Positions 3,880-22,243 of a DNA stretch of 64,000 bases are shown piece after piece (the stretch's first letter is position 1; each line of letters starts with the position of its first letter). Source of the DNA: Bilabrum cf. latius. Taxonomy: Eukaryota. Where the stretch lies: NCBI GenBank assembly GCA_965178125.1, contig OZ237756.1, positions 806,001-870,000 on the forward strand, written 5' to 3'. Below the pieces are notes generated by a model. The model searched no databases. It had not been told where the DNA came from and was given only the letters and a program-made list of their open reading frames with translations. Both the position numbers and the translations under genes were made by a program.

Positions 3880-3971
3880 CTTTTTTTGTGAGGAAGGATA
3901 GAAGAAGGAACCAACTTAATATTTTAAACCCGTGTGAATAAATGGTTTATTTTATTTTATTATTATATATA

Positions 3972-5040
3972 ATGCTATCTTTACAATATACGGAAAATAG
4001 CCATATTGTAGCTATTCAAAAATACAAAAAAACACAATAGAACCGGTTTATTTATTACGACCCGAACGCTAAAGATATTCAACACGTCAAAGCGGAAGAG
4101 ATAACAGATGATGTTTTAAAATCTTATTACGGAGAAAGCCGAGTAAGATATAACGTTGATAAGGACAAGAAAAGGGAACAATTACATAAACTATTACAAG
4201 ATGAATATATACGGTCAGTTTAGGAATTTGCGATTAAAGATAATAGTCAATATTTACCTTTTCCTATGCTCTTTCCATAGGGGCGTGAATATGTGCGATT
4301 ATTTGGTAAGAGTGGAAGCGGGAAAAGTCATTTAGCTTTACATTATATAAGGATGTATAGAGGATTAAAATATAAAAATATGTATGTTATATCACCAATT
4401 CAAGACCCTAAATATAAAAGAGAAGGCGCGACCTTCATTGATATAGATGATTTGGTTAAAGAGAATGAAAACACTTTATATAAGGAAAAAATGGCTTATT
4501 ATAAAAAAATGAAATTATTTTAAATATAAAAAATCTTCTTTGATGAAATCTAAACCTTTAGATGTTGTTATTGAAGCTGAAAGAAAGATAGAGGATTTGA
4601 AACCTGAGAAAGATTTAATAGAAAAAGGTTTTAAATTAAATGTTGAGTTTTTTAAAAAATTGACCGCTGAACCTAATTTATTTATTCTGGATGATTACGA
4701 AGGCTTTAAAAAAAGGAACCAGAAAGCAAAGGCTTATTTTTTATTGGAAATCCTAGCAACTACAGGAAGGCACACAGCAAGTAGCGTTTTAGACATCACC
4801 CACAAAATAAGCGACGGTATGAAGACACGAACCATTATGAACGAAATTACAACCCATATCATTTATAAAACAATTACAGCTAAAAGTTTAAAATATATTT
4901 TAGAAACAGTCTTAAGTTTTGACGCTCCTACTAGAAAACGAATTAAAAAAACCCTTCATTCTCTCCCTCTCTTTGGTTATGTTGCTATTAATGTTGATAA
5001 TAATTATGTAGTTAGCACAAAAAAAATATTTCTCTATTGA
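3972..5040 (+). CDS. A32/FtsK-HerA-type genome packaging ATPase (contains a +1 frame break at ~4518-4523)
   Basis: Walker A GKSGSGKS, Walker B LFILDD and the GRH motif followed by ITH; Walker A and Walker B lie in different frames, joined at TTA TTT TAA. Confidence 0.88.
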
Positions 5041-5048
5041 ATATATAA

Positions 5049-5624
5049 ATGAACATAAACGACTTAAATAGACTAGTCCAAACACCGTTATCTCCTTTAG
5101 AAATTCAAAAATTAGGTGTAGCACATTTGAATTACAAACCTAGAATAGTTATTTACGATGATATTATTAAATAGACCTCATCTATTGAACATATTTTTGA
5201 TGGTTATGACGGCGTAATTATTTATTATCCTAATAAAAAGACGGGACTAAATAGCACATACGGTCATTTCATTTCATTGACCAGAAAACCATCAAGCAAA
5301 ATAATATACTTCTTTGATAGCTATGGAGAAAAACCCGACCAATAGAAACCATTTATTAATAGAGACCAATTGTATCAAGGAGAAGGAGAAGAAAATACGC
5401 TGGTAAAGTATTTAATTGATTAGAAAATGGAAGGTTGGAAAATTGATTATAATCATAAACCGATTTAGAGTTATGCTAACAACAGCGCTACGTGTGGAAG
5501 ATGGGCTCTATTAAGAAACGCTTTTTCTTTCTTATCAAATGATTAGTTTGTAAATGAAATGTTTAGAATATCCAAAATTATGGCTCTTAGTCCTGATTAG
5601 TTAGTGGCGTTGCTTCTACATTGA
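5049..5624 (+). CDS. Adenain-like (clan CE) capsid maturation cysteine protease, 191 aa
   Basis: YGHFISL (His), YFFDSYG (Asp), YNHKPI[TAG]SYANNSATCGRW (oxyanion Gln and Cys); ends TGA; absent from the ORF track because of TAGs. Confidence 0.92.
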
Positions 5625-5826
5625 ATACTCCGACCATCTAATAAAAGGGCTAGAATAAAATAATAAAATATGATTATCTCTAAAATAAAATCCATACGAT
5701 GGCTATATCCACAAATTGCGTATATATTATAGTGTTTTCTAGCAAAACGTGGATGTAGGGCCTCTTGTGAAGGTGAAATGAAGATATAAGCCCTTTTATT
5801 TAGAAAAGTTCCATCGTTTTAGAAGG
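5623..5826 (+). repeat. Dispersed conserved non-coding element, copy 1 of 4 (candidate structured RNA)
   Basis: Blocks ATACGATGGCTATATCCACAAATTGCG, GCAAAACGTGGATGTAGGGCCTCTTGTGAAGG and AGTTCCATC..TTTAGAAGG recur inverted at ~10153, ~17778 and ~21904. Confidence 0.85.
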
Positions 5827-5960
5827 GCAATTTTTCATCCATCTAAATTCAATCAAACTTTTAAATATATTGGTAAAAGTGAAGGGTAAAAATCAAGATG
5901 AAATATTAGATAAGGTTTATTAATAAATATTTATTTGTATAGCTTTAATATATAAATAAA

Positions 5961-6914
5961 ATGAGTTATAGCGATGAATTTGTAAGATTGAATTTAGTTA
6001 GTTCATCTGTCCCCCACAATTAGACGAGATAGGCGGTAGTGAATGAAACCCGTGAAGGCTTAATATTAAAACAAAGTGAAAATTATTTAACGGCTGTTGA
6101 AGAGATGGATTTAAATAAATTTATGCTACCGGTGTTTAAACCTGAATATTAGGATGACAGCGGTAAAACCTATTTAAAATTTACTCTTGAGAATAAAACA
6201 TCAGGAGCCAGAGCAGGCGATTATATAGTTCTAGGTAAAAAAGCTAAATTTTATTATTCATATTAGGATATTGTAAATGAATTTAATGAAGAGTTAAGCC
6301 GAATTTGTGATTTGGTAAGCCTTCCAAGTGGTGATAAACCAGTCTTTAAATTTGAAAATAATAAATGGAGTTTATCAACAACTGAAGATTTTAGAGATAA
6401 TTATTATTTATTTGTTAATTTTGAAGCTTTTGCTTTATTTGATAAATTTGAATATGAAGGAATAACAACCACACCGAGTGATTTATTTGCTAAACTTTCA
6501 TATAATAATTCCCCTGCTAGTGGTGATTATGTTTTTATGGCTAGATAGACGAATTTAAATTCTTGGTGCCCTGTTAAATCTATTATCGTAGAAAGTGATA
6601 TTCCAGTGAATAAAGAATTGGTGACCACAAAATCATCTACTGGTGGCTCTATAGCCGTCAATAAATCCCCTATATTAACCAGCTACCCGTATAATCCTAA
6701 TGACAGCTCACCAATAGAAAATATATTATATGTTTCTAATCCTTACCGCTGGTATTCAATGATGAAGGATAGAAGCTTTAAGAGCGTGTCAATGGCGTTC
6801 TACTGGGTTGATAAACAAAATGAAAAGTATCCCGTAATGAATTTTAACGGGGGTGAAGCTCACATTAAACAAGTATTTAAAAAACAAACCGATAATTTAA
6901 GTTTAGATTTTTAA
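5961..6914 (+). CDS. Virophage minor capsid (penton) protein, 317 aa
   Basis: Motifs VNETREGLIL...LPVFKP, YYSY, WCPVKSIIVESDIPV, NPYRW and FYWVDK; lies directly upstream of the MCP; joins track ORFs 6312 and 6606 via TAG. Confidence 0.85.
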
Positions 6915-6985
6915 ATAAATTATAGAAGATTATAAAATATGTTTAGATATTAAAAAATTTATATCTATAGTGTATATATAAAAAA

Positions 6986-8875
6986 ATGGCTCAACAAATG
7001 GTTCAGAATTTACCAGTAAGCATTAAGGCTCCTAAAAGCCTTCAAATGATAACCCCTGAAGATGCTAGTTTAGGAACAGAACTAGGTGTTCAAAAATATA
7101 CCCGCCGAGAAATTAGACCATCATCTAATCAATCTAATTCTCTTCTTCCCCTTTCTTTCCCCGTTAATCCTACTAGTAAAACCGTATCAAGGTTTATTCG
7201 TCTTCGTCATCGTATGACAGTTAGGCTACAACTAGAGCAAGCAGTACCAGCTCAAACTGCGGGAGGTGATGCTATTACCGCTCAATCTTATCTTAAATCT
7301 AGGTTTGGAACTAATTCATTACCTACCTTTAAAATGCTTCAAGGTGGTGTTTTAACAATTAATGGATAGCCTTTTACAGTAAAAGTTTATGAATGGGCTG
7401 AACCTACTGAAGTTATGAACAGTGAAGAAACCTTATCCACAATCTCACCCGTTGGACGCCCTGACACTGTTGGTGATTATCGTGAAGTAAGTGATACCCT
7501 TAAAAATCCTTTAGCTTGGGGTTAGGATGTTGGATATAGTGCCGGTGATAGCTTTAGTTATCGTGGAGCATATGGGAATGCTTTTACGACTGTAAGTGCT
7601 GATTTCGTTGCGGGTAATAGAGACCAAATTGATTGGACTATTGATTTTCAAGAAGCTATACCACTAAAAGGAGCAGATGTTGATGTGAATGCTAAATATT
7701 TCACCGGTGTGAGAAGCCTTCAGGTTGATTTAGATTATCACGTAAATGCCATTCAAAGACTGTGTAAGGCTAGTTTTACAAAAGATAACGGAGATATTAA
7801 CAAAATAACGGGTTAGTCAATTATAGGAGAAACAAATACGACCCTTCTTGTTGATGAAGTTGAATTTTAGAGTGGATACGCCCCCCCGACTCGTTGTATG
7901 TATAATATGCCTACAATTAAATTTTAGTCTTAGGCGCCTGTCCCTGTACCTAAATCCGCAACTGAAAATTCTTTAACTTCTTTTGATTATCAATTATCCC
8001 GTGAGAATGGTATCCCTAGTGCTATTATGGTATGTGCCCGCCTTGTTGGTTGTGATGATAACCCTAACTGGGCTAATAGAACTTTACCAATTAGAAGAAT
8101 AGGTTTCTCACTCAATGGAAGCGCTGAGGAATTAGGGGCTGTAGATAATCCACACGAATTATATAGAATTAGTAGAAAGAACGGATATGCTCTTCCTCCT
8201 TCATCCTTTTATGGTTCATCAATTGATGGAAGTGATGGAAACCGCGGTACTGGTTGCTATATGATTTTAAAACCTTCAGATGTTGCTACACTTGCTGGTG
8301 TTCAATCTAATGTAAATACTGGATTTAATCTTAAAGTTAATCTTTAGTGCTTCAACCCTTATAATAAATATGCGGATGGTGCGTATGAGGATAAATACGA
8401 GGTAAAAGTATGGATGTTTTATGATAATGTTCTTGTGAATGATAACGGTGTCTATACTGAGGCTGGCGCCCTTATTGAGCCTTCTAAAGTGCTTTCTGAA
8501 CTTGCTAAACGTGGTGATGCTGAAAGTGGTTCTAAAGGTTTCTAGCCTGTATTTGAGGATTTAGATAATTATGCTAATGTTATGGGTGGAAAAGGTCGTT
8601 TCTGGTCTAAGATTGGACGAGCCTTTAAACACGGATGGAACAAGGTTAAAGATTGGGCAAAAAGTGATTAGGCTAAAAACCTAGCGAAAACCATTAGGAA
8701 TATAGGACCACTCAAAAGTCTAACAGGAGACAATAGTGCTCTTGGCAAAGCGGCGGCACATTATGGATATGGAAATAGTGGAGGAGAATTGAATAAACTT
8801 GGTGGAAAACTTACGATGCGTGGAGGTGCGGCAATGAAAACAGACGATCTTGAGGCCCTTTTAAGCACATCTTAA
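6986..8875 (+). CDS. Virophage major capsid protein (double jelly-roll), 629 aa with a probably cleavable C-terminal extension
   Basis: One frame from ATG 6986 to TAA 8873 with only TAG interruptions; virophage-like segments LTING[Q]P, LPIRRIGFSLNG, ELYRISRKNG and NLKVNL[Q]CFNP; tail rich in GG motifs. Confidence 0.9.
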
Positions 8876-8876
8876 A

Positions 8877-8894
8877 CGTTTAAAATGACTTAAA
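8877..8894 (+). promoter_or_regulatory. Putative viral early-promoter motif YGTTTAAAATRRYTTAAA (also 9483-9500+, 10978-10995-, 11415-11432+, 14809-14826-, 17646-17663-)
   Basis: Six copies, each ending 28-30 nt upstream of a predicted ATG on the matching strand. Confidence 0.75.
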
Positions 8895-8922
8895 TATATA
8901 TTAACTAACTAATATATATCAA

Positions 8923-9213
8923 ATGGAAAAGTTAAATAAAATTATTGAGAATCTACCGCCTACACACGATGTCTATATCCAGACAGAAATTGATGGAGTT
9001 TTGACCGTAATTTTTACAAACAGTGATTAGGTAAAAGAAATCACCAATCAATTAAAAAAAGACAGTAGAGAGAAGCTATTATATCTCAAATATTCAACCT
9101 ATAAATGTATTATTTAGACGAGGAATAAGTATAGAGATGATGACATTGTACTTCATTATTTGGCTGTTTGTCTATTAGAAAAGAAACCCATTCAATTATA
9201 TAAGGCAAGATAA
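8923..9213 (+). CDS. Viral hypothetical protein (96 aa)
   Basis: ATG 29 nt after the promoter motif; two in-frame TAG; TAA stop. Confidence 0.65.
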
Positions 9214-9264
9214 TCATTTTATTATTTATTTATACATATTAAATAAATATATGACCTGTGAATG

Positions 9265-9377
9265 ATACTTTCCAAAGTAGGTTCATACTTTCCGAAGTTG
9301 GTTCACACTTTTCAAAGTAGGTTCATACTTTCCGAAGTTGGTTCATACTTTTCAAAGTAGGTTCATACTTTCCAAAG
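9265..9377. repeat. Tandem array of ~5.5 x 20-bp units (ATACTTTYCRAAGTWGGTTC), each with an internal palindrome
   Basis: Directly visible; two alternating variants; ACTT-N4-AAGT dyad in every full unit. Confidence 0.9.
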
Positions 9378-9529
9378 AACTATTTAACCGGTCTAATTAA
9401 TTAATATTTTAATAATATTAATTAATATAATCATCTATATCAATAGTGTCTATTTTTTAAGCCCCTTTTTTATAATATAACGCGTTTAAAATGACTTAAA
9501 GATTATATTATATAGATATTATATAGAGA

Positions 9530-10081
9530 ATGTGTAAAAAGTGTATTGAACAAATATAGGAACATACCGGTAATATAAAATGGATGGACATTTAGAAGAA
9601 ATTAATTCATATTGGCTCAACCGTTATTCAAGGTGATAAATTGGGTAATTGTATTTGTGGGCACGAGATACGAACCGAGCACGAAATAGAGCATACCCCT
9701 AGTGGATATGTTTTTAAAGTGGGTTCTAGTTGTATAAAGTAGATGATAAAGGATAAAGAAAATCAAATTCGTAAAAAATGTTTATATAAGTGGTGTGGAA
9801 TATGTAAAAAGGATGTCGCAAGAGACCGATATAATAAGCACTGTGAAGGAATAAGACATATTGAGTTAGAAAAGAAATAGAATAAGTTAGAGGAAAAAAA
9901 GAGGAATGAAAAAAGATGTGATGTGTGTCTTTGTAAAATGCTTAGAAGTGATTGGAGGACAACCTGTAAGTCTTGTTATACGATTACAAAATATGGTAAA
10001 AAGGCGTGTAAAAAATGCGGAGTGTCTAGAATTAAAGATATGAAATATTCAATTTGTTATAAATGTCATATTGGTAAATAA
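9530..10081 (+). CDS. Viral Cys-rich multi-zinc-finger protein (183 aa)
   Basis: CICGHEI...VGSSCI motif, a C2H2-like unit and several CxxC pairs; promoter motif 30 nt upstream; TAG read-through needed. Confidence 0.78.
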
Positions 10082-10152
10082 TAATTAGATATTAATGATA
10101 AAATTAATATTTAACATATTGATGATGGGAGTTAGAAGGGGCTATATTACAA

Positions 10153-10355
10153 CCTTCTAAAGTGATGGAACTTTTGGGCTAGAAATACGTTATCAATCAA
10201 ATCATCTTCATAAAACTAATCCATCCACGTTTTGCTAAATAATACATATACTAATACGCAATTTGTGGATATAGCCATCGTATGGATTTTATAATAGAGA
10301 TAACCATATATATTTTAATATTCTAGCCCTTTTATTAGATGGTCAAGGTGTTCAA
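10153..10355 (-). repeat. Dispersed conserved non-coding element, copy 2
   Basis: Reverse-complement match to 5623-5826; the central CCTCTTGTGAAGG block is diverged. Confidence 0.85.
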
Positions 10356-10403
10356 TTATTAATAAAGATATCATATTTAATATTAGTATAAATATTAAAT
10401 TAT

Positions 10404-10949
10404 TTAGAAATCTTTTAATGCTTCTTGAAGTTGCTCTCTAAAGGCTTCTTCATCATCATCTTCATCATCTGGTTTCTCAACATTTCTATTATTATCACGT
10501 TTTTGTTTCTTCTTATTCCTCTTCTTAGTCTTTTTCTTGGGTCTTCTTGGTTCTTCTTCTTCTTCTGGTTCCTCTACTTCCTCGGGTATAAATTGACCGT
10601 ATGACAAATTAATATATTTGATGGCTTTGTCCTTCTTTTTAATTGTCATTATGGGGTCTTTACTCTCAAAATTTCCTGTATAATAAATCGGGGGCTCACT
10701 AGAAAACATATAAATGTATGGAACAAATGGATTTTTGGCACTGTCGGTTTTCATATCAGGGGTTAGATACAAACCATTTAATTCGTCTTCATCCACTAGT
10801 TCAAATTTATCTTCTACGGTATTATTAAAAAATATCCCTTTAAAAGTCTTAAAGAAGAATTGATTAATATATTTCTTGGCTTTCTTTACGGCTCCTTCTT
10901 CTAAAAGTTCCATTAATTCGCTTGGTTCATAACTCTCAAATTTTGACAT
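10404..10949 (-). CDS. Viral hypothetical protein with acidic/basic (NLS-like) C-terminus
   Basis: Intact 181-aa ORF; promoter motif 29 nt upstream. Confidence 0.75.
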   Translation of the reverse strand: MSKFESYEPSELMELLEEGAVKKAKKYINQFFFKTFKGIFFNNTVEDKFELVDEDELNGLYLTPDMKTDSAKNPFVPYIYMFSSEPPIYYTGNFESKDPIMTIKKKDKAIKYINLSYGQFIPEEVEEPEEEEEPRRPKKKTKKRNKKKQKRDNNRNVEKPDDEDDDEEAFREQLQEALKDF

Positions 10950-11041
10950 TCTATATATATTATAATAAAATAAAATCTTTAAGTCATTTTAAACGCGTCT
11001 ATTTGGCTTAAAAATAAAATATCTATAGTATATATATAAAA

Positions 11042-11383
11042 ATGGTTAAATTAAGTGATATTCAAATTGTTAGAACTCAACTTGTTAAAAACAATAAGCC
11101 CGTATATAATTTCGTGTTCCCTCCTCGTCCAGATGATGGATATAATGATTTAGAAATGAAGACTTTATTAAAAAAATATATCTAGAGGTTATTAAAACAA
11201 AAGCCCCATTTAAAAAATTATGATGCGTATGTTAGTTCTCTCTACCCCATAGGCTGGCGAACTGGTTCACCATTTAAATTAAAGGATGATGTAATGCTAT
11301 TCAGTCCTTCTTCTCGTTATACCTTCTTAAGTGATGAGCAAGTGAAGAGATTTATATTAATCCTCACTGCTCCGAAACAATAA
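11042..11383 (+). CDS. Viral hypothetical protein (113 aa)
   Basis: TATATATAAAAATG context; one in-frame TAG; TAA stop. Confidence 0.65.
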
Positions 11384-11461
11384 TTACATTTTATAATTTA
11401 AACTTTATAATATGTGTTTAAAATGGCTTAAAAATATATTAAATATAATATACTATAGGAA

Positions 11462-12961
11462 ATGATAAATTATGAAAATGTGTTAAATCAATTAAATATA
11501 TGCTTTGGTAAAAAGTATGATAACCCCATTCAATCCGTGAAGTATCTAGAAAAGGTATTTAACGGTAAGCCCATAACTACAAAGAACCTTTATAAACTTG
11601 TTTCAGGTTTAAAAATGGATATAGAGATTAGAGAGAAAGACGATATAAAGGTCTATTATCTAAGTAGGAAAAAAGAGAGTTTTAAAAGGGTTTGTTTAGA
11701 ATATAAAGATGGTTCATTTAAAGCCGTCTAGAGGATGAAACCTTTATTTGTGCGGTGCCATAAATCTATGGTTGTTAAATTAACCGATAAAGCCGAAATA
11801 ATTGAAAAAGATAAATATAGAGTTGAGAGCCTAACCGATTATCATTCAAAGAAATATTATCTTCATTACACCATTCACGAATGCCCAGAGGATGAAGATA
11901 TCAAAGAATGGAGCTTAAGGCTGAGTATAGCAAGTGATGAATTACACGACGAGAACCCATCATTAGATGTAATGAAATATGGAATCAGACAAACAGCCCT
12001 TCATTTCTTTACAATGTTTAATATGATGATAGATAGCCCACCAGATATAACCCCAGAGGAAGCGGTATTTATTGAAGGTTCAACGCGTGGCGGGATTCAA
12101 TATCACAAGAAGGGACAATATGAGGAGTTTATCACCTACGATATAAATAGTCATTACCCCGCCATTATGTCATCTAATTCACTACTACCATATGGAAATC
12201 CTATTTATAAAACAATTGATAATAAATAGATAAATAATAAAAACGAAATAGGGATTTATAAATGTAAGGTGAGCCAAGGGAAATGCGACCCGAATATCTT
12301 TCAAATGATGAAGGTATTTGAAAATGAATTTACTTATTATGTCTTTACAGATATGAATATGTTTGTTAAATATGGTTGTGAGATAGAGATGTCAAGCGAC
12401 GAATTTAATTTTATGACCTATGATAAATTTATCAAAAGTGAAACACTTTTTAAATCCTATGTCTCAATGTTCTACAAATTAAAAAGCAAATCATATCTAG
12501 CAAAAGAAATATTAAATTCATTATGGGGTAAATTATGTAGTTCCTCTAAAAAGACAATTACATCAAAAGACGATAAAAAAATAAATATAGATAAATTTGA
12601 TATTGACCGTGTAGAAATGGATAATGACGGAGAATTTATTTATCATTTAAAACATAAAGTACCCTTTAAATATAGCTGGGGAAAATTGAAACCTTTTATT
12701 CTGGCATATGGAAGACAACGATTGATGAAGAAAGTGAATAAGAACAACGCTAAACATATTATACGAATTCACACCGACAGTATCACATTTAACAAAAGAT
12801 TAAATTTTAAAGTAGGTAAAGAATTAGGTGAATATAAAAAAGAATAGATAAATGAAGAAGGATAGAAATTAATTATCCACGGATAGAATGATTTAATGGT
12901 CGTAAATGAAAAAGAAGAAATTATATCAAGGAAAGGAAAAAAAGGCGGTTTAATGCTTTGA
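11462..12961 (+). CDS. polB: Family B DNA polymerase (pPolB-like), short 499-aa form
   Basis: TRGG, YDINSHYP (motif A), KEILNSLWGK (motif B), RIHTDSI (motif C); three track ORFs in one frame separated only by TAG; TGA stop. Confidence 0.88.
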
Positions 12962-12988
12962 ATTAAATATTTATTAATTATATAATAT

Positions 12989-13147
12989 ATGATTAATATT
13001 ATTAGTAATATCTTTGTTTAGTATGCTATTAAGAAGGCATTAAAGAAGGTAAAAAATAAATTAATGAAGAATCCAAATAATAAAAGACTCTATGAAGAAT
13101 ATAGAAAAAAAACGGCTCACGCTATTAAAAAATTATCATTTTATTAA
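12989..13147 (+). CDS. Small basic viral hypothetical protein (52 aa)
   Basis: ATG after TATAATAT, one TAG, fills the gap between genes. Confidence 0.4.
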
Positions 13148-13155
13148 TTATACAA

Positions 13156-13863
13156 ATGAATGATAATATACCTAGTTATATTAATAATCCTAAAATTTAC
13201 AAAAAAGCAATCCAAGAAGTAAATAGAACGTATAAAAAACCATCAGCTTATCGTTCATTAGCCTATCTAAAAAAATATAAACAACTAGGGGGGACATATG
13301 ATAAAATTAAATTAAATGAAGCATAGAAAAATTTAAGAAGGTGGAAATTAGAGGATTGGAAGAATTAGAAGGGAGAAAAGGGATATTAGGAAAAAGGAGA
13401 TATATATAGACCCACTAAAAGAATAAATAAAGAGACCCCTTTAACCTTTGGAGAATTAGACACGGAAGAAATAGAGGAAGCAATGAAGGAAAAATTTAAT
13501 AACGGACACGTGAAATCATTTAGACCTAAACCAGTTTTTAATTTATATAAATCAACTAAATCAAATAAAAAATATATGATTAAAGTAGTTCAAGGTAATA
13601 ATATTCTGTTTACTGTTCATTTTGGTGGAATTAAGAATGATGGTACCCCTTATATGGACTTTATACAATATTATAATAAAGATGGAGAGAAGGAAGCAAA
13701 CCGTAAAAAGAAAAATTATATTAAAAGACATTCAATAAATGAAGACTTTAAAGACTATAAATCCCCCGCTTTTTGGTCTAGGTTTGTATTATGGAATGAA
13801 CCAACATTAAAAGATAGCTTTATGGACGCCGTAGATAGAGCTAAAAAATTAATGAAAGTTTAA
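13156..13863 (+). CDS. Fusion of two small domains common in giant viruses/virophages (DUF5872-like plus DUF5754-like)
   Basis: N-terminal PSAYRS..KKYK.LGG.Y...RW..EDW...YRPTKRI..ETP; C-terminal KKYM...VHFG...Y.D...Y..RH...SPAFWSR..LW. Family names recalled, not searched. Confidence 0.65.
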
Positions 13864-13916
13864 TATTATAGGTTTGATATAAGTTTTAGTTTTTCTCTTA
13901 TTTATATATACAAAAA

Positions 13917-14438
13917 ATGAGCTTAGCAAGATTATCGCAACCTAATGATATATCTATTCAATGTAAGAATGTCGCAACTGGTAGATTAGATAGTAGTGGT
14001 CTATATGTAAATGCTGTTGTGAATAGTAGTGATGTAGTTGTTAGCAACGCAGGATTACATCTTGACAGTAAGGGTATCTCTTACATCACTTCGGGTGAAG
14101 CTTTACGATTCGGTGCCAATACCGCATCTGCTGGTTTAGTTATGAGTTTTGATGAAGACGGTCACGAATGTGATTTAACCGTAAAAGGTGAAGTAGTAGC
14201 AAATAACACCGTAGCGCATAAAGGAAGGGTAAATTGGAGTGGTGGAGGTGCTACTGAATTTGCTAGTGTTCCGGGTATGACTTCTAGTGATTTGGTTTTT
14301 ATTACTACAATCACCCCCGCCAGTGAGCCGGTTGAATTTTCCCACGTAGTAGCAGGAACCGATGGATTTACGATTCATTTAACGGGTGGTAATTCCTCTA
14401 ATGATTGGTCCGCTAATTGGATGGTTATTAAAGGTTGA
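13917..14438 (+). CDS. Putative beta-rich fibre/spike-like virion protein
   Basis: Intact 173-aa G/S/V/T-rich ORF with the TATATA..AAAAATG context shared with capsid genes. Confidence 0.55.
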   Translation: MSLARLSQPNDISIQCKNVATGRLDSSGLYVNAVVNSSDVVVSNAGLHLDSKGISYITSGEALRFGANTASAGLVMSFDEDGHECDLTVKGEVVANNTVAHKGRVNWSGGGATEFASVPGMTSSDLVFITTITPASEPVEFSHVVAGTDGFTIHLTGGNSSNDWSANWMVIKG

Positions 14439-14478
14439 AAAATCTTTTTATTTATAAAAAATAAATAAATAGATAAAT

Positions 14479-14781
14479 TTAAATTGATATCTCCGGTGGT
14501 TTAATCCCGCTATTAAGCAGGGTTTGATTAAGTTTTTTGATATATTCCTCTAGTATATCCTTTTTTGGTTCTTTGAGATTTTTTTGGTGTTTCTTCGTTC
14601 GTTCGTGTCTCGTTCTGTCCTTCCTTCTATAATAACAATCACACACATCGCATTTAACTTTTTCATTTCCTCTAGCTAAATATTTTTTATTCCATTTGTC
14701 TTTGTTTGTTTTGTAATATTCCTACATATAATTAATTTTTGGTTGTTCCTATGTATTGCTTGAACTCTAAATATCGCTCAT
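14479..14781 (-). CDS. Small C2H2 (U1/matrin-like) zinc-finger protein (100 aa)
   Basis: VKCDVCDCYIRRKDRTRHERTKKH; three TAGs near the N-terminus; promoter motif 28 nt upstream. Confidence 0.75.
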
Positions 14782-14839
14782 CACTATATATTATATAAAT
14801 ATATAATGTTTAAGTTATTTTAAACACATAAAAAAGGTA

Positions 14840-17617
14840 TTAAATATTCTAATCTAATCGTTCGTTGGATTCCTTGTATACGTCCTTCATTTCGGGATAC
14901 TAATATTTATAAACTTCATCAAATAATTCTTTCTCCTTGGTGAATTTAATTCTTAATTCTCTATCCTTTTTATCCTTTTTATTCCCCATACTCCAGGAGG
15001 TTTTGATATTTCCAAATAACTACTTATATAATTTTACGATTGCCCCGTGTAATTCACTATCGGTTTCTATTGGCTTCTATAATCTCGCCCCGCTTACTTC
15101 TACATATCTTTTACCCATTTCTATATATTTAATGGATTTCTCATTTTTACGTGTATAACTTAAATCAAATTTATTCAATTTAAGCGTCTATAACATCTCC
15201 TACAATATGATTATTTTATTCTTTGTACTTTTTGCTTTTTCATCCTTAAAATCCTTTCTATCCTTTAATTCTGTCATTAGTTTATATTTATCTTTTCTCT
15301 TGAAATTAGCATAATTAAAATAATTCATTAATTTGTAATTATCAATTAATAACATTTTAATATCCTCCGTTATGGCTGTCTCTGGTAGCCCTAAAATTTC
15401 AATTCTTCTTTTTATATGGTCGTTCTCTACATCAAATGAATCAATCTTTTCTTGTAGTATCTCCATTGTCGCCTCTTTCATCTGCTATTTATTCATTCGT
15501 TGTGGTAATTCCTTATCCACCTATACATCGGCACCCCTGTTTTTAAGAATAAGCTATAAATGAATATATTTATTTGTTTCGTATGTATCACATTTGAAAT
15601 TATATAATTTCTTGAGTGGTAAATAAACCTTATATGATGCCTCTATCATTGCTTTATGGGCTATCTCTTCATCATCTTCTCCCTCAAAAATATCAATGTC
15701 AATATCATTCTCCTACATTATCCTTTTTTCGTATTTTTCTAATTTAGTATATAAATCTGTCTATGCGTTAATTTCCATATTTAAGGTCGTCTATACCTCC
15801 TTTAAATTCTCATATCTTGGATAAATGGATTTTACATCTTCAAAATATATATTCATATATTCGGGATTTCTACATCTTGCCAGTTGCTACATCATCTACG
15901 GCGGTAGAATCGTTTTTCCTTTATATAATCCATACACTGGGCGTTCCATTACACTATCTAATCCGTAAATGACTTTAGGACTAAATATAATTTTATCATA
16001 TTTATCTAAGCTCACATCTTCATCAGGTAATAAATCACTAGTAATTAATTTAACGTCCTCTATACCATCTTTACATAACATTTTATAAAATGTATCTGCG
16101 TTCTTCTTGCTATCACACGCCAGTATAAATTTATCTTCACTTTTTAATTTATCGTAAAATTTCTATTGGTCTTTTTCAAAATATACTTTTACGTCCTTAA
16201 AATGCTTATATTTATTCTTAATGAAGCTAAATTCTACTCCAGCACATTTTAAAAATTTCATCGCTATCTGGGATATGTCAGCATCTACAGCAATAAACTA
16301 TTTACACGTCCTTATCATTTTTAAAATAATAAATAATACAAGAACCCTATTATTATTCATCGTGGTAGAACTTAATATATGCTCTATAATGCTATTGAAT
16401 TCATCCAAGAATACGATGTATTTAGAAAAATCATAATTCACAATTTGGGGGATACTTTCCGGCGTAATAATAAGAGACTATCCAAAATCAAAATCTTTAT
16501 TCTGGTAGAACTCACATTTAATATCTTCATTTAAAAAGCTCTCGTATTGCTCTGTGCCTAAACATACACGGGACACAATGGATAAGAACGGCGTTTGAAC
16601 CTGTTTAATATACTTCTTAAATGCTGTTGTTTTACCTGTTCCTGTATCACTTTTTACCACATAGTTATATTCATATTTAAAAAAGCGTTCGGGCTTCTCT
16701 ATATCATCTAACTTAGGTTTATTAATTTCTGTATACCCGTTAATATTCTCGTCATAAGGACGATAATAACACTTTGAAATATACTTATCCTTCACAAATG
16801 CCTTTAAACTTTTATCATTCTAAATTATTGAATTAACTAAATTAAAGGTTTTTAACTTATCAAAATAATGGATAGAGTTCCACACCTTGTTATTTTTGTG
16901 GTAGTCGTATTTATTGCCCTTCTTGCTCCACTCCTACCATTCCTTCTTAAATCCTAAATATTTACTCGCTAGGGTTGCTTTATACCAATCACTATAATTA
17001 TTTAAATATTTCTTATCTAATCTATTTAATATAATTGACCAGTCTTTACCATTTAGAATGAATTTCATCATACAGTTATTCACATCTTGATTATCAATTT
17101 TTGATATCCTTTTACTCGCCCCTTTTACGTTGGATTTCTTAGAGGATTTAATAATATACTTTTCATAAAATTTATAAAGCTCCTTAGGACATTTTTTTAT
17201 TTCTACATTATTAATAACTTCGTATTTTGACCCATTTATGCCACTTGGTGGTGCCACTACATAAGCCCCATCATTACGAATATCAACGTCAATATCTCTA
17301 TTGGTGGTAGTTAATATATTCTAATCATATTTAAAATATAAATGATACCCTCCACCCGCTGTTTTAACCGTGAATGTGTTGAACCGCTTCACAAAGTCAT
17401 CTGAAAATTTCTTGATGAATAAATGCTCCTTCTTATCGCTCCATTTATATGAATCAATATCAAACACGGTTATATTATTAATTTCTCCGGTGATAATAGC
17501 CATATTCTGATTATTGAATCGTTTAGGCTCGGGTTTGGTGAGATAACGCCAGCTTTTAACATCGGGTATTTTTTGATTGTGCTTGATGGGGAAACTTACG
17601 AGGTTTTTATTATTCAT
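14840..17617 (-). CDS. Bifunctional Prim-Pol (AEP) + PriCT-2 + SF2 helicase (herpes UL9/origin-binding-protein-like) fusion, 925 aa
   Basis: AIITG...VFDID, KTAGGGYHLYF, DIRNDGAYVVAPPS; NYSDWYK...W[Q]EWSK; KSDTGTGKT, VFLDEFNS, SPKVIYGLD, MM[Q]QLARCR; five track ORFs in one frame. Confidence 0.88.
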
Positions 17618-17777
17618 TTTCTATATATATTATTAGAAATATATTTTTAAACTATTTTAAACGCCATATTTAATTATAGAGGGCTTAAAGGGGCTATAAT
17701 AATTAATGAAGGTGAAAGGTGATTTTTGCCATTTAGCCCTAAAAAATAGATTGTGATATGAATGGTGTATTTTAACA

Positions 17778-17980
17778 CCTTCTAAAGTGATGGAACTATT
17801 TTTTAAAATTATCTTAAGGTCCCATACCACCTTCACAAGAGGCCCTACATCCACATTTTGCTAGAAATACTATATAATTATACGCAATTTGTGGATATAG
17901 CCATCGTATAGATTTTAATATAGCGGTTATATTAAAATATTTAATTAAATTCTAGCCCGTTTATTAAGTTGTAGGGGCTT
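17778..17980 (-). repeat. Dispersed conserved non-coding element, copy 3
   Basis: Reverse-complement match to 5623-5826; begins right after the TAA of gene 17981-18751. Confidence 0.85.
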
Positions 17981-18751
17981 TTAATTATAGATATCTTGTA
18001 GTTTTTCGTGTTCGGCCTTCACATCAAGGGTCAAATATACCCGGCTATTCCAAAACTCAGGGCTGTTTATATCATCGCTATTATTAATATTAAAATTTCT
18101 TTTAATTTTACAAATCATAATTTGTAATTTACGAGGGCTAAACTATTTCTTAAGAGCCTCTACATCGGGTAAATTAATTTCACCAAAGAATACATCATTT
18201 CCATTTACGGACACTTTATACCTATAGTCTCCGTCTTCTAGCCTTTCCAGGTCTCCAATTATTTTTTTGTCTTCCTCAGGTATCATTTCGTCATCAGTTT
18301 CTGCTTCTATCTAGTCTTGTTCGGTACTAACGCTGTTTATTTCGCTTTCACTGTCAGGCTCCATACCGGTTAATTTTTCATCTATTGCGGTCTATCTAAT
18401 TAATTCTGGCGGTTGTAAATCATCTACATCATTATAAATTTTATTATTTGGTGGTTTGTAGTCATTAAATTTATCTAGAATGTATGTTTGCTTAATTTCA
18501 ACTTGGTCGTTATTATCGTGTTGTATCTTCTGTTTCTCTTCTTTCTTGGGTTTTTTGACGGCTTTTTTCTCTTTAATATCACTAACTATATTTTTATTAA
18601 TTAATTTTGGTTTTGAAAACTTACCACCTAAATCTACATACGTAGTAATGGTCTCTAAAATTTTTTGCGTACTATCTGTAATATGGTCTGTAGCCTTATA
18701 AATCTGCTTCATTAGGACAGGATTTTCAATGACATAATTATTAAAGTTCAT
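17981..18751 (-). CDS. Viral hypothetical protein (256 aa)
   Basis: Track ORF 18392-18751 extends through TAGs to TAA 17981. Confidence 0.7.
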
Positions 18752-18969
18752 ATCTATAATACTAAGTTATAATTTTTGAGTTTTAAAAAAACGCTTAGAG
18801 GTGGGGGGGTTATGTGGGGGTTATCCCTGCCTATAGGCTAGGGTTATGAAGGGGGTTATGTGATGTATAGGCATAGATTAATACTTTAGAACCCTGTATC
18901 ATTTCAATCATCCAATCTTATGGTGGGTAAGCACCTTAAATTTTGTAAATCCCCCTACGGTCAAGGGGC

Positions 18970-19701
18970 TTACTCCTCCTCACTCTCAGCATTGGCCACC
19001 TGTGGGTCCTCCTCAGCATCAGACACAGCGTCCGGTTCCGGCTCGCGTTCCGGCTCCACATCCACGACAGCATCCGCTCTTGGCTTCAGTTTTCCATCTC
19101 CAGTCGTCCACTTCCTTGAAGGCGGGGCAGGCTTGGGTTCGGCACGGGGTTGGATGTCCGCCGTCTCGTTGTCGGGTTCACCAGCTTCAGCCCTCTGTTT
19201 AGCCTTCAGCTCGGCCAGTCTTTTCAGGGCACCCCGTCCTTTCCCCTTCTTCCCTCGCACACCCTTGGGCTTGCGCTTGGGTTTGGGCTTGGGCTTGGAT
19301 GGCATCTTGTCCGGCTCGTCCGCGGTCATATCGCTCATCGTGTTGTCGCCAGAAATAGGCTCTTCCACACTAGCCTGTTCATTTAAAATCTACTTGAGCG
19401 CTTCAGAACGGCAGGAACTGATGAACGCATCAACGTCTAAGTTGAGGTCGTACGCAAAAGCCCTAGCCTACTCCTACGCAAAACGTAGATTGTTGAGTCC
19501 ATACTACGCAATGGTGCTCGTAGTAATGAAATCCTCTTGTCGTACCTTTTTACATCCAAAACGCAGCTCGAGCTACATCCGCTACATCTAGATGACAAAT
19601 GGTGCTACTTCCTCCAAAATCTTCATGACCAGAAGCTTGCTCTACCGCTAGGCTTTCCGGACTTGGTTCTTTTGCGTATGCTCCCGTCTAGGCTTGGGCA
19701 T
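18970..19701 (-). CDS. Terminal-module hypothetical protein (243 aa) with basic NLS-like and acidic C-terminal regions
   Basis: ATG 19701, many in-frame TAG, KPKPKPKRKPKGVRGKKGKGR, TAA stop. Confidence 0.65.
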
Positions 19702-19731
19702 AATAATAAATTGGTTGCTATAAGTGAATGT

Positions 19732-19781
19732 TTAGACCGCCACATTTCCTAAGAAATGCTGGCTTCCAATATTCAGGTCCA
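19732..19781 (-). promoter_or_regulatory. 50-bp direct repeat (partner at 21735-21784) with dyad CATTTC-N4-GAAATG and CCAAT; putative promoter
   Basis: 47/50 identical copies, each about 30 nt upstream of the first coding base of a minus-strand gene. Confidence 0.65.
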
Positions 19782-19953
19782 GATTTAGCAGGTGTGATGA
19801 GTGTTTGTCGCCACGTCCTTCTCATCCAGCACACGACCAACCGAGACCACTAGAGACCAAACCAGACACTGAGAAATAATTAATTAATATATTTCAATCT
19901 CATCATTCCAAATCCTCCTAACTAATTATAATATCGTAGAGCTATCCACCTAC

Positions 19954-20730
19954 TCACTCCCAAAAATGCTCGGAAGTGAAGGGGTCCTCACCGAGAAGAA
20001 CGTCCAGTTCATCAAGACCGTCCTCCATTGGACTTGATGGAATAGGTGGAAGCCCATCACCCACGTCAAAGCCACCCGCACCAGCACCCATATCATCCCC
20101 TCCCACAGATGACGCGTCAAATTCACCAGCACCAGCACCAGCACCATCACCGAGTGAAGGCGGGGCATACGCGGAGCCACCAGCGTAGTATCCAGCACCG
20201 GACGAAGGCGGGGCAGATGAAGCCTAACCACCAGCACCAGCACCATCACCGAGTGAACGCGGGGCATACGACGCGGAGCCACCCGCCACAGCGCCGGACG
20301 AAGGCGGGGCAGATGAAGCGGAGCCACCAGCACCAGCACCGAGTGAAGGTGGGGCAGATGAAGCGGAGCCACCAGCACGTAATCCCTGGATCCTCTAATT
20401 AATAATATCGATACGCTCCGTACTCATAGTGAGTTTGTCCTGTACCCGCTTCACGAACTACAGCGCCTCATTACACCGGTAATCTAGGTCCAAGACCTTC
20501 TTTGACTGCTCAGAGGACATAAACTGTACCACTGAACGAATGTTAATATCCAAATTAATACCCTCCCTCCTAAGCTCGTGCTCGGCTGTGCGGTACGCCT
20601 CCTCGGCGCTCTTCAGTTCGCCGGCAAACTTGTCATTCTGCTTCCGCTCCTTCTTCAGTAGCTTGTTCAATCCCCGTACATCCTAATTATAAATACCTTT
20701 AGAATTAATCCATTGACTAGTAGCCATCAT
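19954..20730 (-). CDS. Terminal-module protein (258 aa): helical N-terminus, G/A/S/P repeats, acidic-aromatic tail
   Basis: MMATSQWINSKG... open with TAG=Q to TGA 19954; tail DGLDELDVLLGEDPFTSEHFWE. Confidence 0.65.
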
Positions 20731-21035
20731 CGTTGAGCCTCGTTGGTATGAGAACCGAGCTGCGGTGTTGTACGGCAAAAAAAGATCACCTTGCTATCTC
20801 GCGCTATTCATTAGATACAAACTTTCAGACCAACCTGATACAATTAATACACAACAAAATTAATTCTGTGTGTCCCACCCGACATAATTGAAGGAATTAT
20901 AACTTGATGTACGGGGGATTGTGGCAGTCCACGGCACGCGCTAAAAAAACTTATTTATTAATTGTTGAGTATAGATACAATCGGCATCGCCTGCTCGCCA
21001 GCAGTAGAAGCACACCACCAAGCACCAACGACCAA

Positions 21036-21701
21036 TCAATCCACCTCCATCTCGTCCTCGCTAGCCTCCCCGTCCTCCAGCATTGGGGTTGAGTTCTTGG
21101 TTCCTCGAATGTCGGATATGGTGTTGGCACCACCGCCAGGGTTGGCATCAGCCAAAGCAAGACGATTATTCACGAGGTCGGCAATGTTGAACCCGAATTT
21201 AGCCCTCATCGTTGACTGTACAGGTCGCATAAGCGGGTGAGACTTCACAGCCACCATCTTCTCCGCCTCGTTCTTGGACAGCACATCGTAGTGGGCGTGT
21301 AGGTGTATCATCGTGAGCACCTGATACAGCATCACAGCCCGCTTCTTGGCATCGTGAGGACTTTTACAGCCTTTGACGAAATCCCGCATTGACGCAAGAC
21401 AATCGGCCGGCACTCCCATCTTTATGAGATGATACCCCTGCTCCACCATCTCCTGCTTGATGCTGTCCCGCTTGGCCTCGTAGTCCTGCTGTGCTCCCGC
21501 GATGGCTTTCACATAGCCTTTGAGTTGAGACTTGGTAGCCATAGTCAGTTTGTTGTTCTTGAAGGCGTGGGCACTATCGGGGATGCGACCTTTGACCGTA
21601 AACACCTCTGGCACTGCGATATAGCATATTGGCTTGGGCAGTACAATCTACGTATCAATCCAATACAACCAAATACGCCGGTGTGGTGGGGGTATCTTAC
21701 T
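21036..21701 (-). CDS. Terminal-module hypothetical protein (192 aa); start codon split by an 87-nt GT-AG intron (21700-21614)
   Basis: No in-frame ATG near the 5' end of the ORF; removing GTAAG...CGCAG creates A|TG CCA GAG. Confidence 0.62.
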
Positions 21702-21734
21702 TTTTTCTATTAGCAGTCTATTAAAAGTGAAGGA

Positions 21735-21784
21735 TTAGACCGCCACATTTCCTAAGAAATGCTGAACTCCAATATTCAGGTCCA
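21735..21784 (-). promoter_or_regulatory. Second copy of the 50-bp putative promoter repeat
   Basis: Near-identical to 19732-19781. Confidence 0.65.
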
Positions 21785-21903
21785 TTTTGACGATGACGAG
21801 TGTAGCGAGTTGCTGTTGCGTCTTTGTTCCATTTGTGAAGGTATAAGCGAGGATAAGGGGGTATAATGAAGGTAGTTTAGAAGGTTGAATAATGGAGTCC
21901 CAT

Positions 21904-22040
21904 AAAGTGATGGAACTTTTGGCTAGAAAATGGCTAGAGTCCCATAAAACCTTCACAAGAGGGCTACATCCACGTTTTGATTAGAACTTACTATAATATA
22001 TACCCAAAGTATGGATATGGTCATCGTATAGAGTTTTATA
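21904..22040 (-). repeat. Dispersed conserved non-coding element, copy 4 (most diverged, subterminal)
   Basis: Retains AAAGTGATGGAACT, CCTTCACAAGAGG, CTACATCCACGTTTTG and TGGATAT..TCATCGTAT. Confidence 0.8.
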
Positions 22041-22243
22041 TTAAATTGATTTTATATAATTAGAAGGATAAAGCAGTTATGTGAAGTAGCAGTATGAAGA
22101 GGACCACCTTGACTTTTGGAGCGACTAGCGAGAAAAGGAATGGAGAGAGGGAAGAGCTTTAGCTCTGACTGAACGTAATTATTGATGATGTTAATCATCC
22201 TTAACCGAAGGGAATAAATTTATTTATTACCGTAGCGGGGGGG

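Follow-up and report, generated by a model that had tools for sequence, protein, structure and literature searches.

Nuclear-type RNA processing in a probable terminal module of an integrated mavirus-like virophage

Introduction

Endogenous virophages have been discussed as inducible defences against giant viruses, kept silent as long as no giant virus provides the machinery to transcribe them. To our knowledge, splicing and poly(A) tailing of the kind undergone by host nuclear genes are not known for virophage genes. In bacteria, the morons and lysogeny genes of prophages are terminal, deviate in composition, have their own promoter and terminator and are expressed while the phage is integrated, with the virion genes on other promoters. 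The endogenous mavirus-like elements (EMALEs) of Cafeteria are AT-rich virophages of about 20 kb and more, integrated in the GC-rich genome of a protist and in many cases within its genes (10.1101/068312; PMC8547959). They encode a mavirus-type penton and major capsid protein (MCP) and, at one end, a primase-helicase; their core genes are preceded by AT-rich promoter motifs specific to each type. In the available text of these reports, EMALE genes are described as free of introns (PMC8547959) and endogenous mavirus genes as not constitutively expressed (10.1101/068312); the available text of a further report states that endogenous viruses 'do not contain introns' (PMC10120064).

Two other integrated viruses offer points of comparison. 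In the Chlamydomonas punuivirus, as far as the available text goes, a host-like latent gene set with GT-AG introns and host-type transcription is distinguished from a virion and virulence set with a conserved AT-rich viral promoter (10.64898/2026.10.09.758095); its genome, that of a giant virus, measures several hundred kb, carries 6mA marks and has introns in 61 genes. Tetraselmis TsV-like polinton-like elements are small integrated dsDNA viruses in which one orphan gene is expressed in the integrated state and the other genes are silent. This 'sentinel' gene has a homologue in free virus, has no intron reported in the text available and was proposed to trigger reactivation (PMC9356565).

Here we describe a virophage of about 22 kb that shares with the EMALEs the features listed above but differs from them in having three GC-richer terminal genes, spliced and/or polyadenylated and devoid of core motifs, and in reading TAG as sense. 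Compared with the punuivirus it has one intron and a three-gene terminal cassette, known from sequence and contigs; unlike the TsV-like elements it has three orphan genes, one of them spliced. We put at roughly 60% the probability that the 3.4-kb GC-richer segment is a right-terminal accessory module of the integrated virophage, with genes built for the host nucleus.

Results

The window, by which we mean the whole 64,000-nt stretch of DNA that was analysed, holds a mavirus-like virophage at positions 1-22243, identified by capsid and helicase matches (Table 1). The penton matched Pfam V18-19 at 5.3e-7, above the cut-off, and PDB 6g41 at E 6.5e-24. The MCP matched PDB 6g45, 'putative major capsid protein', over residues 92-615 (E 3.6e-8), and Pfam MCP_V20_C weakly, at 0.0037 and below the cut-off. 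We take 6g41-6g45 to be mavirus proteins. For the PrimPol-helicase, 3987 relatives were found at E<=1e-3. The ORF at 3942-4523 has a Walker A motif and sub-threshold Pfam matches to AAA_22/nSTAND3; a frame change close to A-runs (4503-4532) divides this putative FtsK/HerA-type packaging ATPase gene in two. The ORF in the protease position, a candidate cysteine protease, had no Pfam match and one tblastn relative (L017; 39% identity, 3.9e-21). No integrase domain was found by Pfam among 22 ORFs, and neither a terminal inverted repeat (TIR) nor an integrase is visible in the part of the element that lies in the window, its left end being outside. A scan of a viral contig collection with the MCP, gene C and the helicase relatives P0001 and P0002 found nothing.

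The virophage interrupts an armadillo-repeat gene of its host. Host positions 22244-23299 match Pfam Arm at E 5.7e-44, and the 126-nt repeat family of the armadillo-repeat array starts at 22240. A contig of a diverged copy, from run X3 (see below), matches 21921-22244 and continues into unlike sequence, departing from the window exactly at 22244. Farther into the host DNA, an ORF at 28100-30997 (minus strand) considered as reverse-transcriptase-like had no Pfam support at E<=0.01 and was dropped.

Table 1 Features of the virophage and its right-terminal segment (strand as given; a dot marks features without strand).
Feature	Position	Strand	Details
Virophage core	1..18803	.	Extends past the left edge of the window; ORF, Pfam and PDB matches
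Putative ATPase, split	3942-5040		Core gene
Protease-position ORF	5049-5624		Core gene
Penton	5961-6914		Core gene, directly upstream of MCP; Pfam and PDB matches
MCP	6986-8875		Core gene; PDB match (read with TAG=Q)
PrimPol-helicase	14840-17617	-	PrimPol and PriCT_2 domains
Core/module boundary zone	18804..18866	.	G-run and three GGGTTATG-type short repeats (family D11)
Gene A transcript unit	18878..19742	-	CDS 18970-19701, 243 aa, 9 in-frame TAG
63-nt leader/promoter repeat, copy 1	19719..19781	-	Direct repeat, 90% identity with copy 2
Gene B transcript unit	19867..20921	-	CDS 19954-20811, 285 aa, 5 in-frame TAG
Gene C exon 2 and 3' UTR	20959..21613	-	Coding 21036-21613; contigs and ORF
Intron, spliceosomal type, 87 nt	21614..21700	-	GTAAG...CGCAG; joint 21613->21701 in contigs
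Gene C exon 1 (5' leader)	21701..21820	-	X2 contig (record 12) reaches 21820
63-nt leader/promoter repeat, copy 2	21722-21784	-	Within gene C exon 1
~220-nt dispersed non-coding repeat, fourth copy	21880..22062	+	Alignment with core copies
Right terminus of element	22063..22243	.	Ends in G-run; host array from about 22240-22244

Every interruption of a core gene is an in-frame TAG; the terminators are TAA and TGA. Because neither of these two ever interrupts a frame, we rejected RIP-like C-to-T decay as an explanation of the broken ORFs. The helicase has 20 in-frame TAG codons; in the 16 columns that could be used, aligned with 30 relatives, the log-odds were +7.3 for Q, -0.3 for D, -4.1 for K and -5.7 for E, and at position 577 Q occurs in 30/30 relatives. 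In host ORFs the codon-position GC pattern persists across in-frame TAGs. TAG is thus a sense codon in both virophage and host, and by the helicase columns it probably encodes Gln, with a moderate margin. We also considered that the element might encode a suppressor tRNA or an RNA of a known family; ARAGORN found no such tRNA and Rfam no family at E<=1.

The preliminary description had placed a shift in composition at ~18.8 kb, and both GC per kb and GC3 bear it out. GC jumps there from 0.30 to 0.50: by kilobase it is 0.296 at 17-18 kb, 0.342 at 18-19 kb and 0.499, 0.510 and 0.485 over 19-22 kb, with host DNA beyond at 0.53-0.60. GC3 is 0.61 in gene A, 0.49 in gene B and 0.66 in gene C, against 0.17-0.33 in 18 core genes. 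The boundary zone lies between the promoter of the core gene at 17981-18751 and the 3' end of gene A. A G-run resembling the terminal one recurs in it (18804-18816) and could be an older terminus, which would make the module a later addition or separable. Farther right, past the three genes, lies a copy of a ~220-nt repeat of the core type, the other three copies of which are in core intergenic regions (5620-5860, inverted; 10135-10356; 17760-17945). This copy ties the right terminus to the virophage and, with host Arm sequence present only from 22244, places the module inside the element. A 25-mer of the repeat had no match in the viral contig collection. The repeat has an internal hairpin, but we rejected it as a structured RNA: compensated pairs numbered 0 and 4 on the two strands, from only 4 copies, with no Rfam family and no covariation of the hairpin. 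Among 35 metagenomic loci with related helicases, none carried A, B or C and none had a 1-kb bin above 0.46 GC.

Genes A, B and C all lie on the minus strand and, as first described, are orphans: no match was found in Pfam, in PHROGs or in a word search of 5.8 billion proteins, the last covering near lengths only. None of these protein searches returned a match that would link A-C to TVSG_00024, the TsV sentinel. The gene models first drawn for A and B did not hold, having been truncated by the standard code; with TAG as sense the two reach the lengths given in Table 1. The first 104 codons of gene A contain 0 TAA or TGA and 9 TAG, and 345 of 20000 shuffles were equally open; the N-terminal frame of gene B was free of TAA and TGA in 29 of 20000. 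The rarity of equally open shuffles argues that these TAG-containing frames are coding. GC at codon positions 1/2/3 of gene A is 0.49/0.34/0.61. Its predicted product is helical in the N-terminal half, carries a K/R-rich tract and ends in an acidic tail; that of gene B has a coiled-coil-like N-terminal half, a G/A/S/P-rich region encoded by 45-51-nt tandem repeats and an acidic-aromatic tail. The translations thus contain the basic tract (A) and acidic-aromatic tail (B) noted earlier, and an acidic tail in C as well, all as features of composition only. Gene C has an internal ATG at 21542 and ends in TGA at 21036-21038. In the structural follow-up proposed at the outset, single-sequence AF2 models were obtained for A and C (pLDDT 61.6 and 55.4), both all-helical and too weak to interpret; Foldseek of the C model against the PDB returned nothing at E<=1e-3, and the ESM Atlas held no usable match to gene C.

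We looked for transcripts among assembled contigs of public runs, which, not being raw reads, give no strand, level or true transcription start site. No run with the module is listed as RNA, and the run types are guesses: X1-X3 are labelled 'RNA?', X1 also 'probably DNA', and X7 is DNA-like. Module contigs are present in X1-X3, three runs from two studies of differently labelled organisms, alongside contigs of host genes. Those of gene A (X1, 18878-19742; X2, 18892-19733; X3, 19321-19742) are colinear with the DNA, the X1 contig differing from the window by one letter and no gaps; their 5' ends meet at 19742 in two studies, a weak hint only. Gene B is represented in X1 (19867-20158 and 20654-20921), X2 (20256-20596) and X3 (20017-20596), and gene C in X1 by 20959-21500. 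Contig breaks fall between genes, at 19742/19867 and 20921/20959; an X7 contig runs continuously over 18859-20151. The three genes are therefore separate units in the RNA-like contigs. After gene B, untemplated T-runs on the plus strand, T25 at 19867 in X1 and T23 at 19870 in X2, correspond to a poly(A) tail, which argues that X1 and X2 are RNA. For the core, X1-X3 have no contigs in bins 12000-18537 and X7 covers all 30; this is no evidence that the core is silent.

Gene C had been proposed to have its ATG split by a canonical intron, to be sought in spliced transcripts across 21700/21614, and we found this intron removed exactly in contigs of X2 and X3. The skipped 87-nt interval begins with CT and ends with AC on the plus strand, that is, GT..AG on the minus strand. 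One contig in each run, from two studies, crosses the joint, with a shorter side of 120 nt in X2 (21023-21613 joined to 21701-21820) and 40 nt in X3; the unspliced form is seen in a contig of the DNA-like run X7 (20959-21776). Intron removal and untemplated poly(A) together show that transcripts of the module undergo nuclear-type processing, as the proposal of nuclear expression had anticipated. Should X1-X3 be DNA, retrocopies would account for the joined and A-tailed forms and would record past splicing, not current expression.

The last base of exon 1 is the A of an ATG that spans the junction and is in frame with the 168-aa ORF, for a predicted product of 192 aa. In the 23 added codons GC1/2/3 is 0.52/0.39/0.65, a pattern shared with the remainder of the gene. 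This junction ATG would be the first in-frame AUG of gene C and is a candidate start; the leader holds three short upstream ORFs, so it is perhaps not the first AUG. An out-of-frame ATG at 21627 inside the intron is lost on splicing. Aligned with the 5' region of gene A, the intron contains a relic of the gene A start region in which ATG has become CTG, and the X2 contig of gene C, which extends to 21820, passes upstream of the site homologous to the 5' end of gene A. From these alignments, the intron appears to have arisen over an ancestral start region, a duplicated leader having been intronised together with its start-codon region. It would be, as far as the literature searched shows, the first spliceosomal intron in a virophage.

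Core genes carry the motif GTTTAAAATGACTTAAA, found with up to 3 mismatches at 6 sites against 0.15 expected, all about 28-45 nt upstream of core ATGs. The module was described as lacking the AT-rich core promoter, and indeed none of the 6 sites falls in 18800-22243. Instead, genes A and C, and only these, have a 63-nt leader in common, a 30-mer of which occurs exactly at the two copies and nowhere else within the 64 kb, with 0 matches in metagenome contigs. In copy 1, AATATT precedes the contig 5' end by 26-31 nt and a near-palindrome spans 19742. From AT-rich boxes ~26-39 nt upstream of contig 5' ends we infer Pol II promoters for the module genes, and A and C probably share a duplicated promoter-leader cassette. 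Host-like architecture and regulatory signals set the module genes apart from the virion genes.

Discussion

The ownership of the segment bears on its reading as a virophage module. It might instead be host-derived DNA or a separate mobile unit carrying ordinary host-type genes, its linkage to the virophage incidental or recent. GC3 and expression signals that resemble those of the host would fit such an origin, as would the absence of A-C from the metagenomic loci and the recurrence of a terminal-type G-run at 18804-18816. Loose contig ends in X3 (19263, 20904) and X7 (21791) point to other contexts or variants, with copies in which these genes adjoin other sequence; linkage to the virophage is therefore shown at this locus only. 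The 30 letters beyond the X3 end at 20904 are absent from the window at <=3 mismatches. We nevertheless regard a separate origin as unlikely. Virophage sequence flanks the module on both sides, in the form of a core promoter (18752-18800) and the ~220-nt repeat, and the host Arm gene, once interrupted, does not continue until 22244. Across the remaining 42 kb of the window, which are host DNA, there are no paralogues of the module, the GC of which (0.50) is well under that of the host (0.60-0.70). No flanking duplications and no terminal inverted repeats belong to the module itself, and for want of the latter we rejected it as a self-contained TIR element.

A second question is when the genes are expressed. 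Splicing and polyadenylation require residence in the nucleus, not latency, and nuclear dependence is described for some giant viruses (PMC5413956, in the text available). As the preliminary description also allowed, A-C might therefore be expressed early in infection, during a nuclear phase either of the virophage itself or of a helper giant virus that uses the nucleus, and not be genes of a latent provirus. This is distinctly improbable in our judgement: the same transcripts occur in three runs from two studies of differently labelled organisms, together with host gene contigs, and the codon usage of A-C alone is shifted towards that of the host, as would suit genes long expressed with the tRNAs of the host. 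Very improbable, although compatible with a host-expressed terminal module, is a gene-containing TIR, with an inverted A-B-C at the left end of the element. The module is terminal, and the X7 loose end at 21791 shows the last ~450 nt to be common to other contexts. The TIRs of virophages are usually several hundred bases long, ~808 bp on average according to the part of a recent report that is available (10.64898/2026.07.28.741278), far short of 3.4 kb, and no part of 18800-21800 has an inverted copy within 1-18800, the left end being outside the window.

As an accessory module of the virophage, the segment could work as follows. A, B and C each form a transcription unit of their own, preceded at ~30 nt from the RNA 5' end by an AT-rich box, and would be transcribed by host Pol II from the provirus. 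Their RNAs are cleaved and polyadenylated, with the 87-nt GT-AG intron of gene C spliced out, and would be translated from codons that have moved host-ward under the variant code of the host (UAG sense, probably Gln). Judging by composition alone, the products may act in the nucleus as factors of the provirus state; candidate roles are provirus maintenance, a sentinel for reactivation and functions that benefit the host. Such roles would be analogous to those of the lysogeny genes or morons of prophages, which are bacterial and without RNA processing and resemble the module in logic only. More broadly, and tentatively, since we hold it somewhat less probable than its opposite, virophages may be able to carry a 'nuclear mode' cassette with promoters and poly(A) signals of host type and a spliceosomal intron, expressed by the host from the provirus, the nuclear factors of which would keep the provirus poised or sense a giant virus: a lysogeny module of a eukaryotic satellite.

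If this holds, host-expressed, spliced provirophage genes would be concrete candidates for maintenance, anti-silencing and control of reactivation, and a small virus of cytoplasmic factories would be able to evolve nuclear genes, in line with a recent report on a latent giant virus. The standard code would break nearly every gene of this element, and pipelines that assume it, along with intronless endogenous viruses, miss or truncate such genes. As far as the available text goes, endogenous viruses of Streblomastix strix likewise share the stop-codon reassignment of their host (PMC10120064; TAA/TAG=Gln). Here, unlike in S. strix, TAG alone is reassigned, and TAA and TGA end genes.

A virophage element in which UAG is a sense codon

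The first 22.2 kb are set sharply apart from the remainder of the window, with a GC content of 0.26-0.42 up to 18 kb, ~0.50 at 19-22 kb and 0.5-0.7 beyond. Read with standard codon assignments, the AT-rich part contains only short open reading frames (ORFs; longest, 205 aa) whose interruptions are in-frame TAGs, never TAA or TGA; with TAG taken as sense, it yields a compact virus-like gene set. On the basis of its penton, major capsid protein (MCP) and helicase matches, we assign the element to the mavirus-like virophages, taking structures 6g41-6g45 to be mavirus capsid proteins. The helicase has 3987 relatives at E<=1e-3 (best relative, 50% identity).

Thirty relatives favour glutamine at the helicase TAG positions, with log-odds over 16 usable columns of +7.3 for Q, -0.3 for D, -4.1 for K and -5.7 for E. 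Position 577 is Q in 30/30 relatives and position 440 in 23/30; positions 228 and 380 are mostly D. The UAG residue is most likely glutamine, by a moderate margin. TAA or TGA is the terminator in all 22 gene models checked. In-frame TAGs are also found in host ORFs that are supported by Pfam or are clearly coiled-coil in nature (three each in a kinase-Arm and an FG-GAP gene, 11 in an LRR gene and seven in a 1520-codon coiled-coil ORF), and the codon-position GC pattern of host ORFs is the same on either side of them. Virophage and host therefore have in common a code with UAG as a sense codon. TAG-bearing host ORFs include 53636-58195, 41182-45795 and 33604-36798. The standard code breaks nearly every virophage gene (20 TAGs in the helicase, nine in the MCP), and the module gene models in the preliminary description, which relied on that code, changed once TAG was read as sense.

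Features of the virophage element
Feature	Coordinates	Strand	Details
P-loop (packaging) ATPase	3942..5040		two frames, 3942..4523 and 4543..5040
Penton protein	5961..6914		Pfam Sputnik V18/19 5.3e-7; PDB 6g41 6.5e-24
MCP	6986..8875		PDB 6g45 3.6e-8, residues 92-615
PrimPol/PriCT_2 helicase	14840..17617	-	925 aa
Gene A	18970..19701	-	243 aa, 9 TAG
Gene B	19954..20811	-	285 aa, 5 TAG
Gene C	21036..21542	-	168 aa, TAG-free; frame open up to 21647
Gene A contig unit	18878-19742
Gene B contig units	19867-20158, 20017-20596, 20654-20921
Gene C contig units	20959-21500, 21023-21820
~220-nt non-coding repeat, 4 copies	5620-5860 (inverted), 10135-10356, 17760-17945, 21880-22062

Three orphan genes in a GC-richer terminal module

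The composition shift and the three co-oriented orphan genes described for the right-terminal module (18800-22243) are both borne out: GC is ~0.50 at 19-22 kb, and genes A, B and C all lie on the minus strand and have no detectable relative in protein-family and protein-database searches. GC3 is 0.61 in A, 0.49 in B and 0.66 in C, 0.17-0.33 in core genes and 0.57-0.84 in host ORFs. The TAG-bearing N-terminal parts of A and B are coding by two measures: only 345/20000 (A) and 29/20000 (B) shuffles match their TAA/TGA-free frames, and their GC1/2/3 of ~0.48/0.34/0.60 resembles that of gene C. Neither the three genes nor a GC-richer segment was found in 35 metagenomic loci with related helicases.

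Single-sequence AlphaFold2 models were helical and of low confidence (pLDDT 55 and 62), and Foldseek returned no match at E<=1e-3. The N-terminal half is helical in protein A and coiled-coil-like in protein B; A also carries a K/R/P/G tract and an acidic tail, and B a region of G/A/S/P tandem repeats and an acidic-aromatic end. Protein C combines helical character with an acidic tail. Such compositions would fit, short of proof, nuclear, chromatin- or transcription-related factors.

RNAs of the module genes bear marks of nuclear processing

The module was found in eight public sequencing runs, none with a recorded library type, and we compared X1 and X2 (one study), X3 (a second) and X7 (a third) over 12000-26000. 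Automatic labels call X1 'probably DNA' and the others 'RNA?'; all run data are assembled contigs, from which strand, level and exact ends are not obtainable. One X2 contig (21023-21613 plus 21701-21820; 120 nt on the shorter side) joins 21613 to 21701, skipping 87 nt with ends CT..AC, which are GT..AG on the minus strand. The same joint, exactly the intron that had been predicted, recurs in a single X3 contig (shorter side, 40 nt), and an X7 contig (20959-21776) is unspliced across it. Untemplated T runs precede 19867 (25 T, X1) and 19870 (23 T, X2); these are poly(A) tails of gene B RNA from the minus strand and lie 87 nt beyond the stop codon. The contigs fall into units of gene size whose breaks lie in intergenic spaces, with one X7 contig (18859-20151) continuous through one such break. 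Gene A contigs share a 5' end, 19742, in two studies, a weak hint. The contig of gene A aligns colinearly to the DNA, with one differing letter and without gaps; the mature RNA therefore contains the nine UAGs. Poly(A) tails, splicing and unit structure argue that the X1-X3 contigs are RNA; had they come from DNA, these features would represent retrocopies, for which spliced, tailed mRNA is needed all the same. RNAs of three terminal genes in an integrated virophage thus bear the marks of nuclear processing.

Splicing of the GTAAG...CGCAG intron removes an out-of-frame ATG at 21627 and joins the last A of exon 1 to the TG of exon 2, creating an ATG in frame with the main ORF that adds 24 codons to gene C (192 aa in total). 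Given a 5' end at ~21745, as in gene A, the junction ATG would be the first AUG; it is a candidate start codon only, since the X2 contig extends to 21820 and gives a longer leader with three short upstream ORFs. When the 5' regions of A and C are aligned, the leader is common to both and a ~63-nt stretch containing the 5' splice site is found in C only. Ten of ten positions are identical at the gene A start and first codons, with CTG for ATG in C, and this stretch lies within the gene C intron. In the simplest history, a promoter-leader-start cassette would have been duplicated and the start region of the C copy intronised later.

Regulatory sequences and position of the module

A core promoter-like motif (GTTTAAAATGACTTAAA class) occurs six times where 0.15 are expected, always ~28-45 nt upstream of core start codons. 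None of the six copies lies in the module, as had been claimed. A 63-nt upstream repeat is common to A and C (90% identity), and its 30-nt centre occurs at these two places only within the window. AATATT lies 26-31 nt upstream of the gene A contig 5' end, and an AT-rich stretch, also the end of gene C, lies ~29-39 nt upstream of that of gene B; both boxes are compatible with TATA-type promoters. In regulatory sequences and codon usage, the module genes are unlike the rest of the element. A second AT-rich upstream class (TATATCTATAGTGTATATATAAAAA-like; 5017-5051, 6950-6984 and 11008-11042) precedes the protease-position ORF, the MCP and gene 11042..11383. It differs from the GTTTAAAATGACTTAAA class found before six further core genes, which points to two promoter classes that differ in timing.

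The left side of the element extends past the window edge and its right end is 22243; a 126-nt repeat family runs from 22240, and an armadillo-repeat ORF starts mid-repeat directly after the end (Arm 5.7e-44, 22244-23299). Since a core-type promoter lies to the left of the module, a fourth copy of the ~220-nt repeat (the other three being in core intergenic regions) to its right, and host sequence restarts only at 22244, the module belongs to the virophage at this locus. Each repeat copy has an internal imperfect hairpin (~17 bp), with no Rfam family and no covariation support among four copies; the right-end copy is spanned by X1 and X3 contigs. Gene 17981..18751 and the module are flanked by two copies in direct orientation (17760-17945 and 21880-22062), which may be recombination points. 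The helicase N terminus lies <=~460 nt from the contig end in 8/35 metagenomic loci, a weak hint, contig ends being arbitrary, that the helicase is terminal in relatives, versus 4.6 kb beyond it here.

Interpretation

We infer that host Pol II transcribes A-C from the provirus and that the genes have a role in the integrated state, be it maintenance, a sentinel function for reactivation or a benefit to the host. Of the similar interpretation in the preliminary description, nuclear processing is upheld by the splice joint and poly(A) tails; function, expression from the integrated state and a TIR stay at the level of proposals. The cassette might instead be a host-derived or separable unit merely sitting in this virophage copy, in line with variant junctions seen as contig loose ends at 19263, 20904 and 21791 and a terminal-type G-run at 18804-18816; the flanking core-type promoter and core repeat tie it to the element at this locus. 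Alternatively, A-C could be genes of a nuclear phase of infection, in which their RNAs might also be spliced and tailed, or the cassette could be part of a long TIR.

Earlier reports describe introns as absent from EMALE genes (PMC8547959), endogenous mavirus genes as not constitutively expressed (10.1101/068312), endogenous viruses as treated as intron-free in a large survey (PMC10120064) and Halocafeteria virophages as very lowly expressed (10.64898/2026.07.28.741278). Among the listed matches on virophages and spliceosomal introns, none, judged by title and abstract opening, concerns a spliced virophage gene. The two closest analogues come from Tetraselmis, whose PLV elements express one 'sentinel' orphan (PMC9356565), and from Chlamydomonas, whose giant virus punuivirus has a latent programme that is host-like and rich in introns (10.64898/2026.10.09.758095). 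Set beside these, A-C would be provirus-state, host-mode genes carried by a virophage, one of them with a verified intron.

Other features of the locus

The ATPase frame change sits among A-runs at 4503-4532; it either is genuine, which would make this copy defective, or stems from a homopolymer error in the assembly. In the intergenic stretch 9245-9397, upstream of gene 9530..10081, a 20-nt unit (ATACTTTCCAAAGTAGGTTC-like) is repeated in tandem about seven times, and the array could be a replication origin or bind proteins. Long GC-rich tandem repeats (61495-63972) are found in the upstream portion of ORF 60890-64000 (-), which has a Cullin neddylation domain at its end; their frame encodes Ala/Gly/Thr/Asp-rich units. 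The armadillo-repeat gene is broken by the virophage, its 3' part starting mid-repeat at the junction; its C terminus matches that of the kinase-Arm paralogue at 33604-36798, 11 kb away, and contigs of X1-X3 still span the truncated 3' part.
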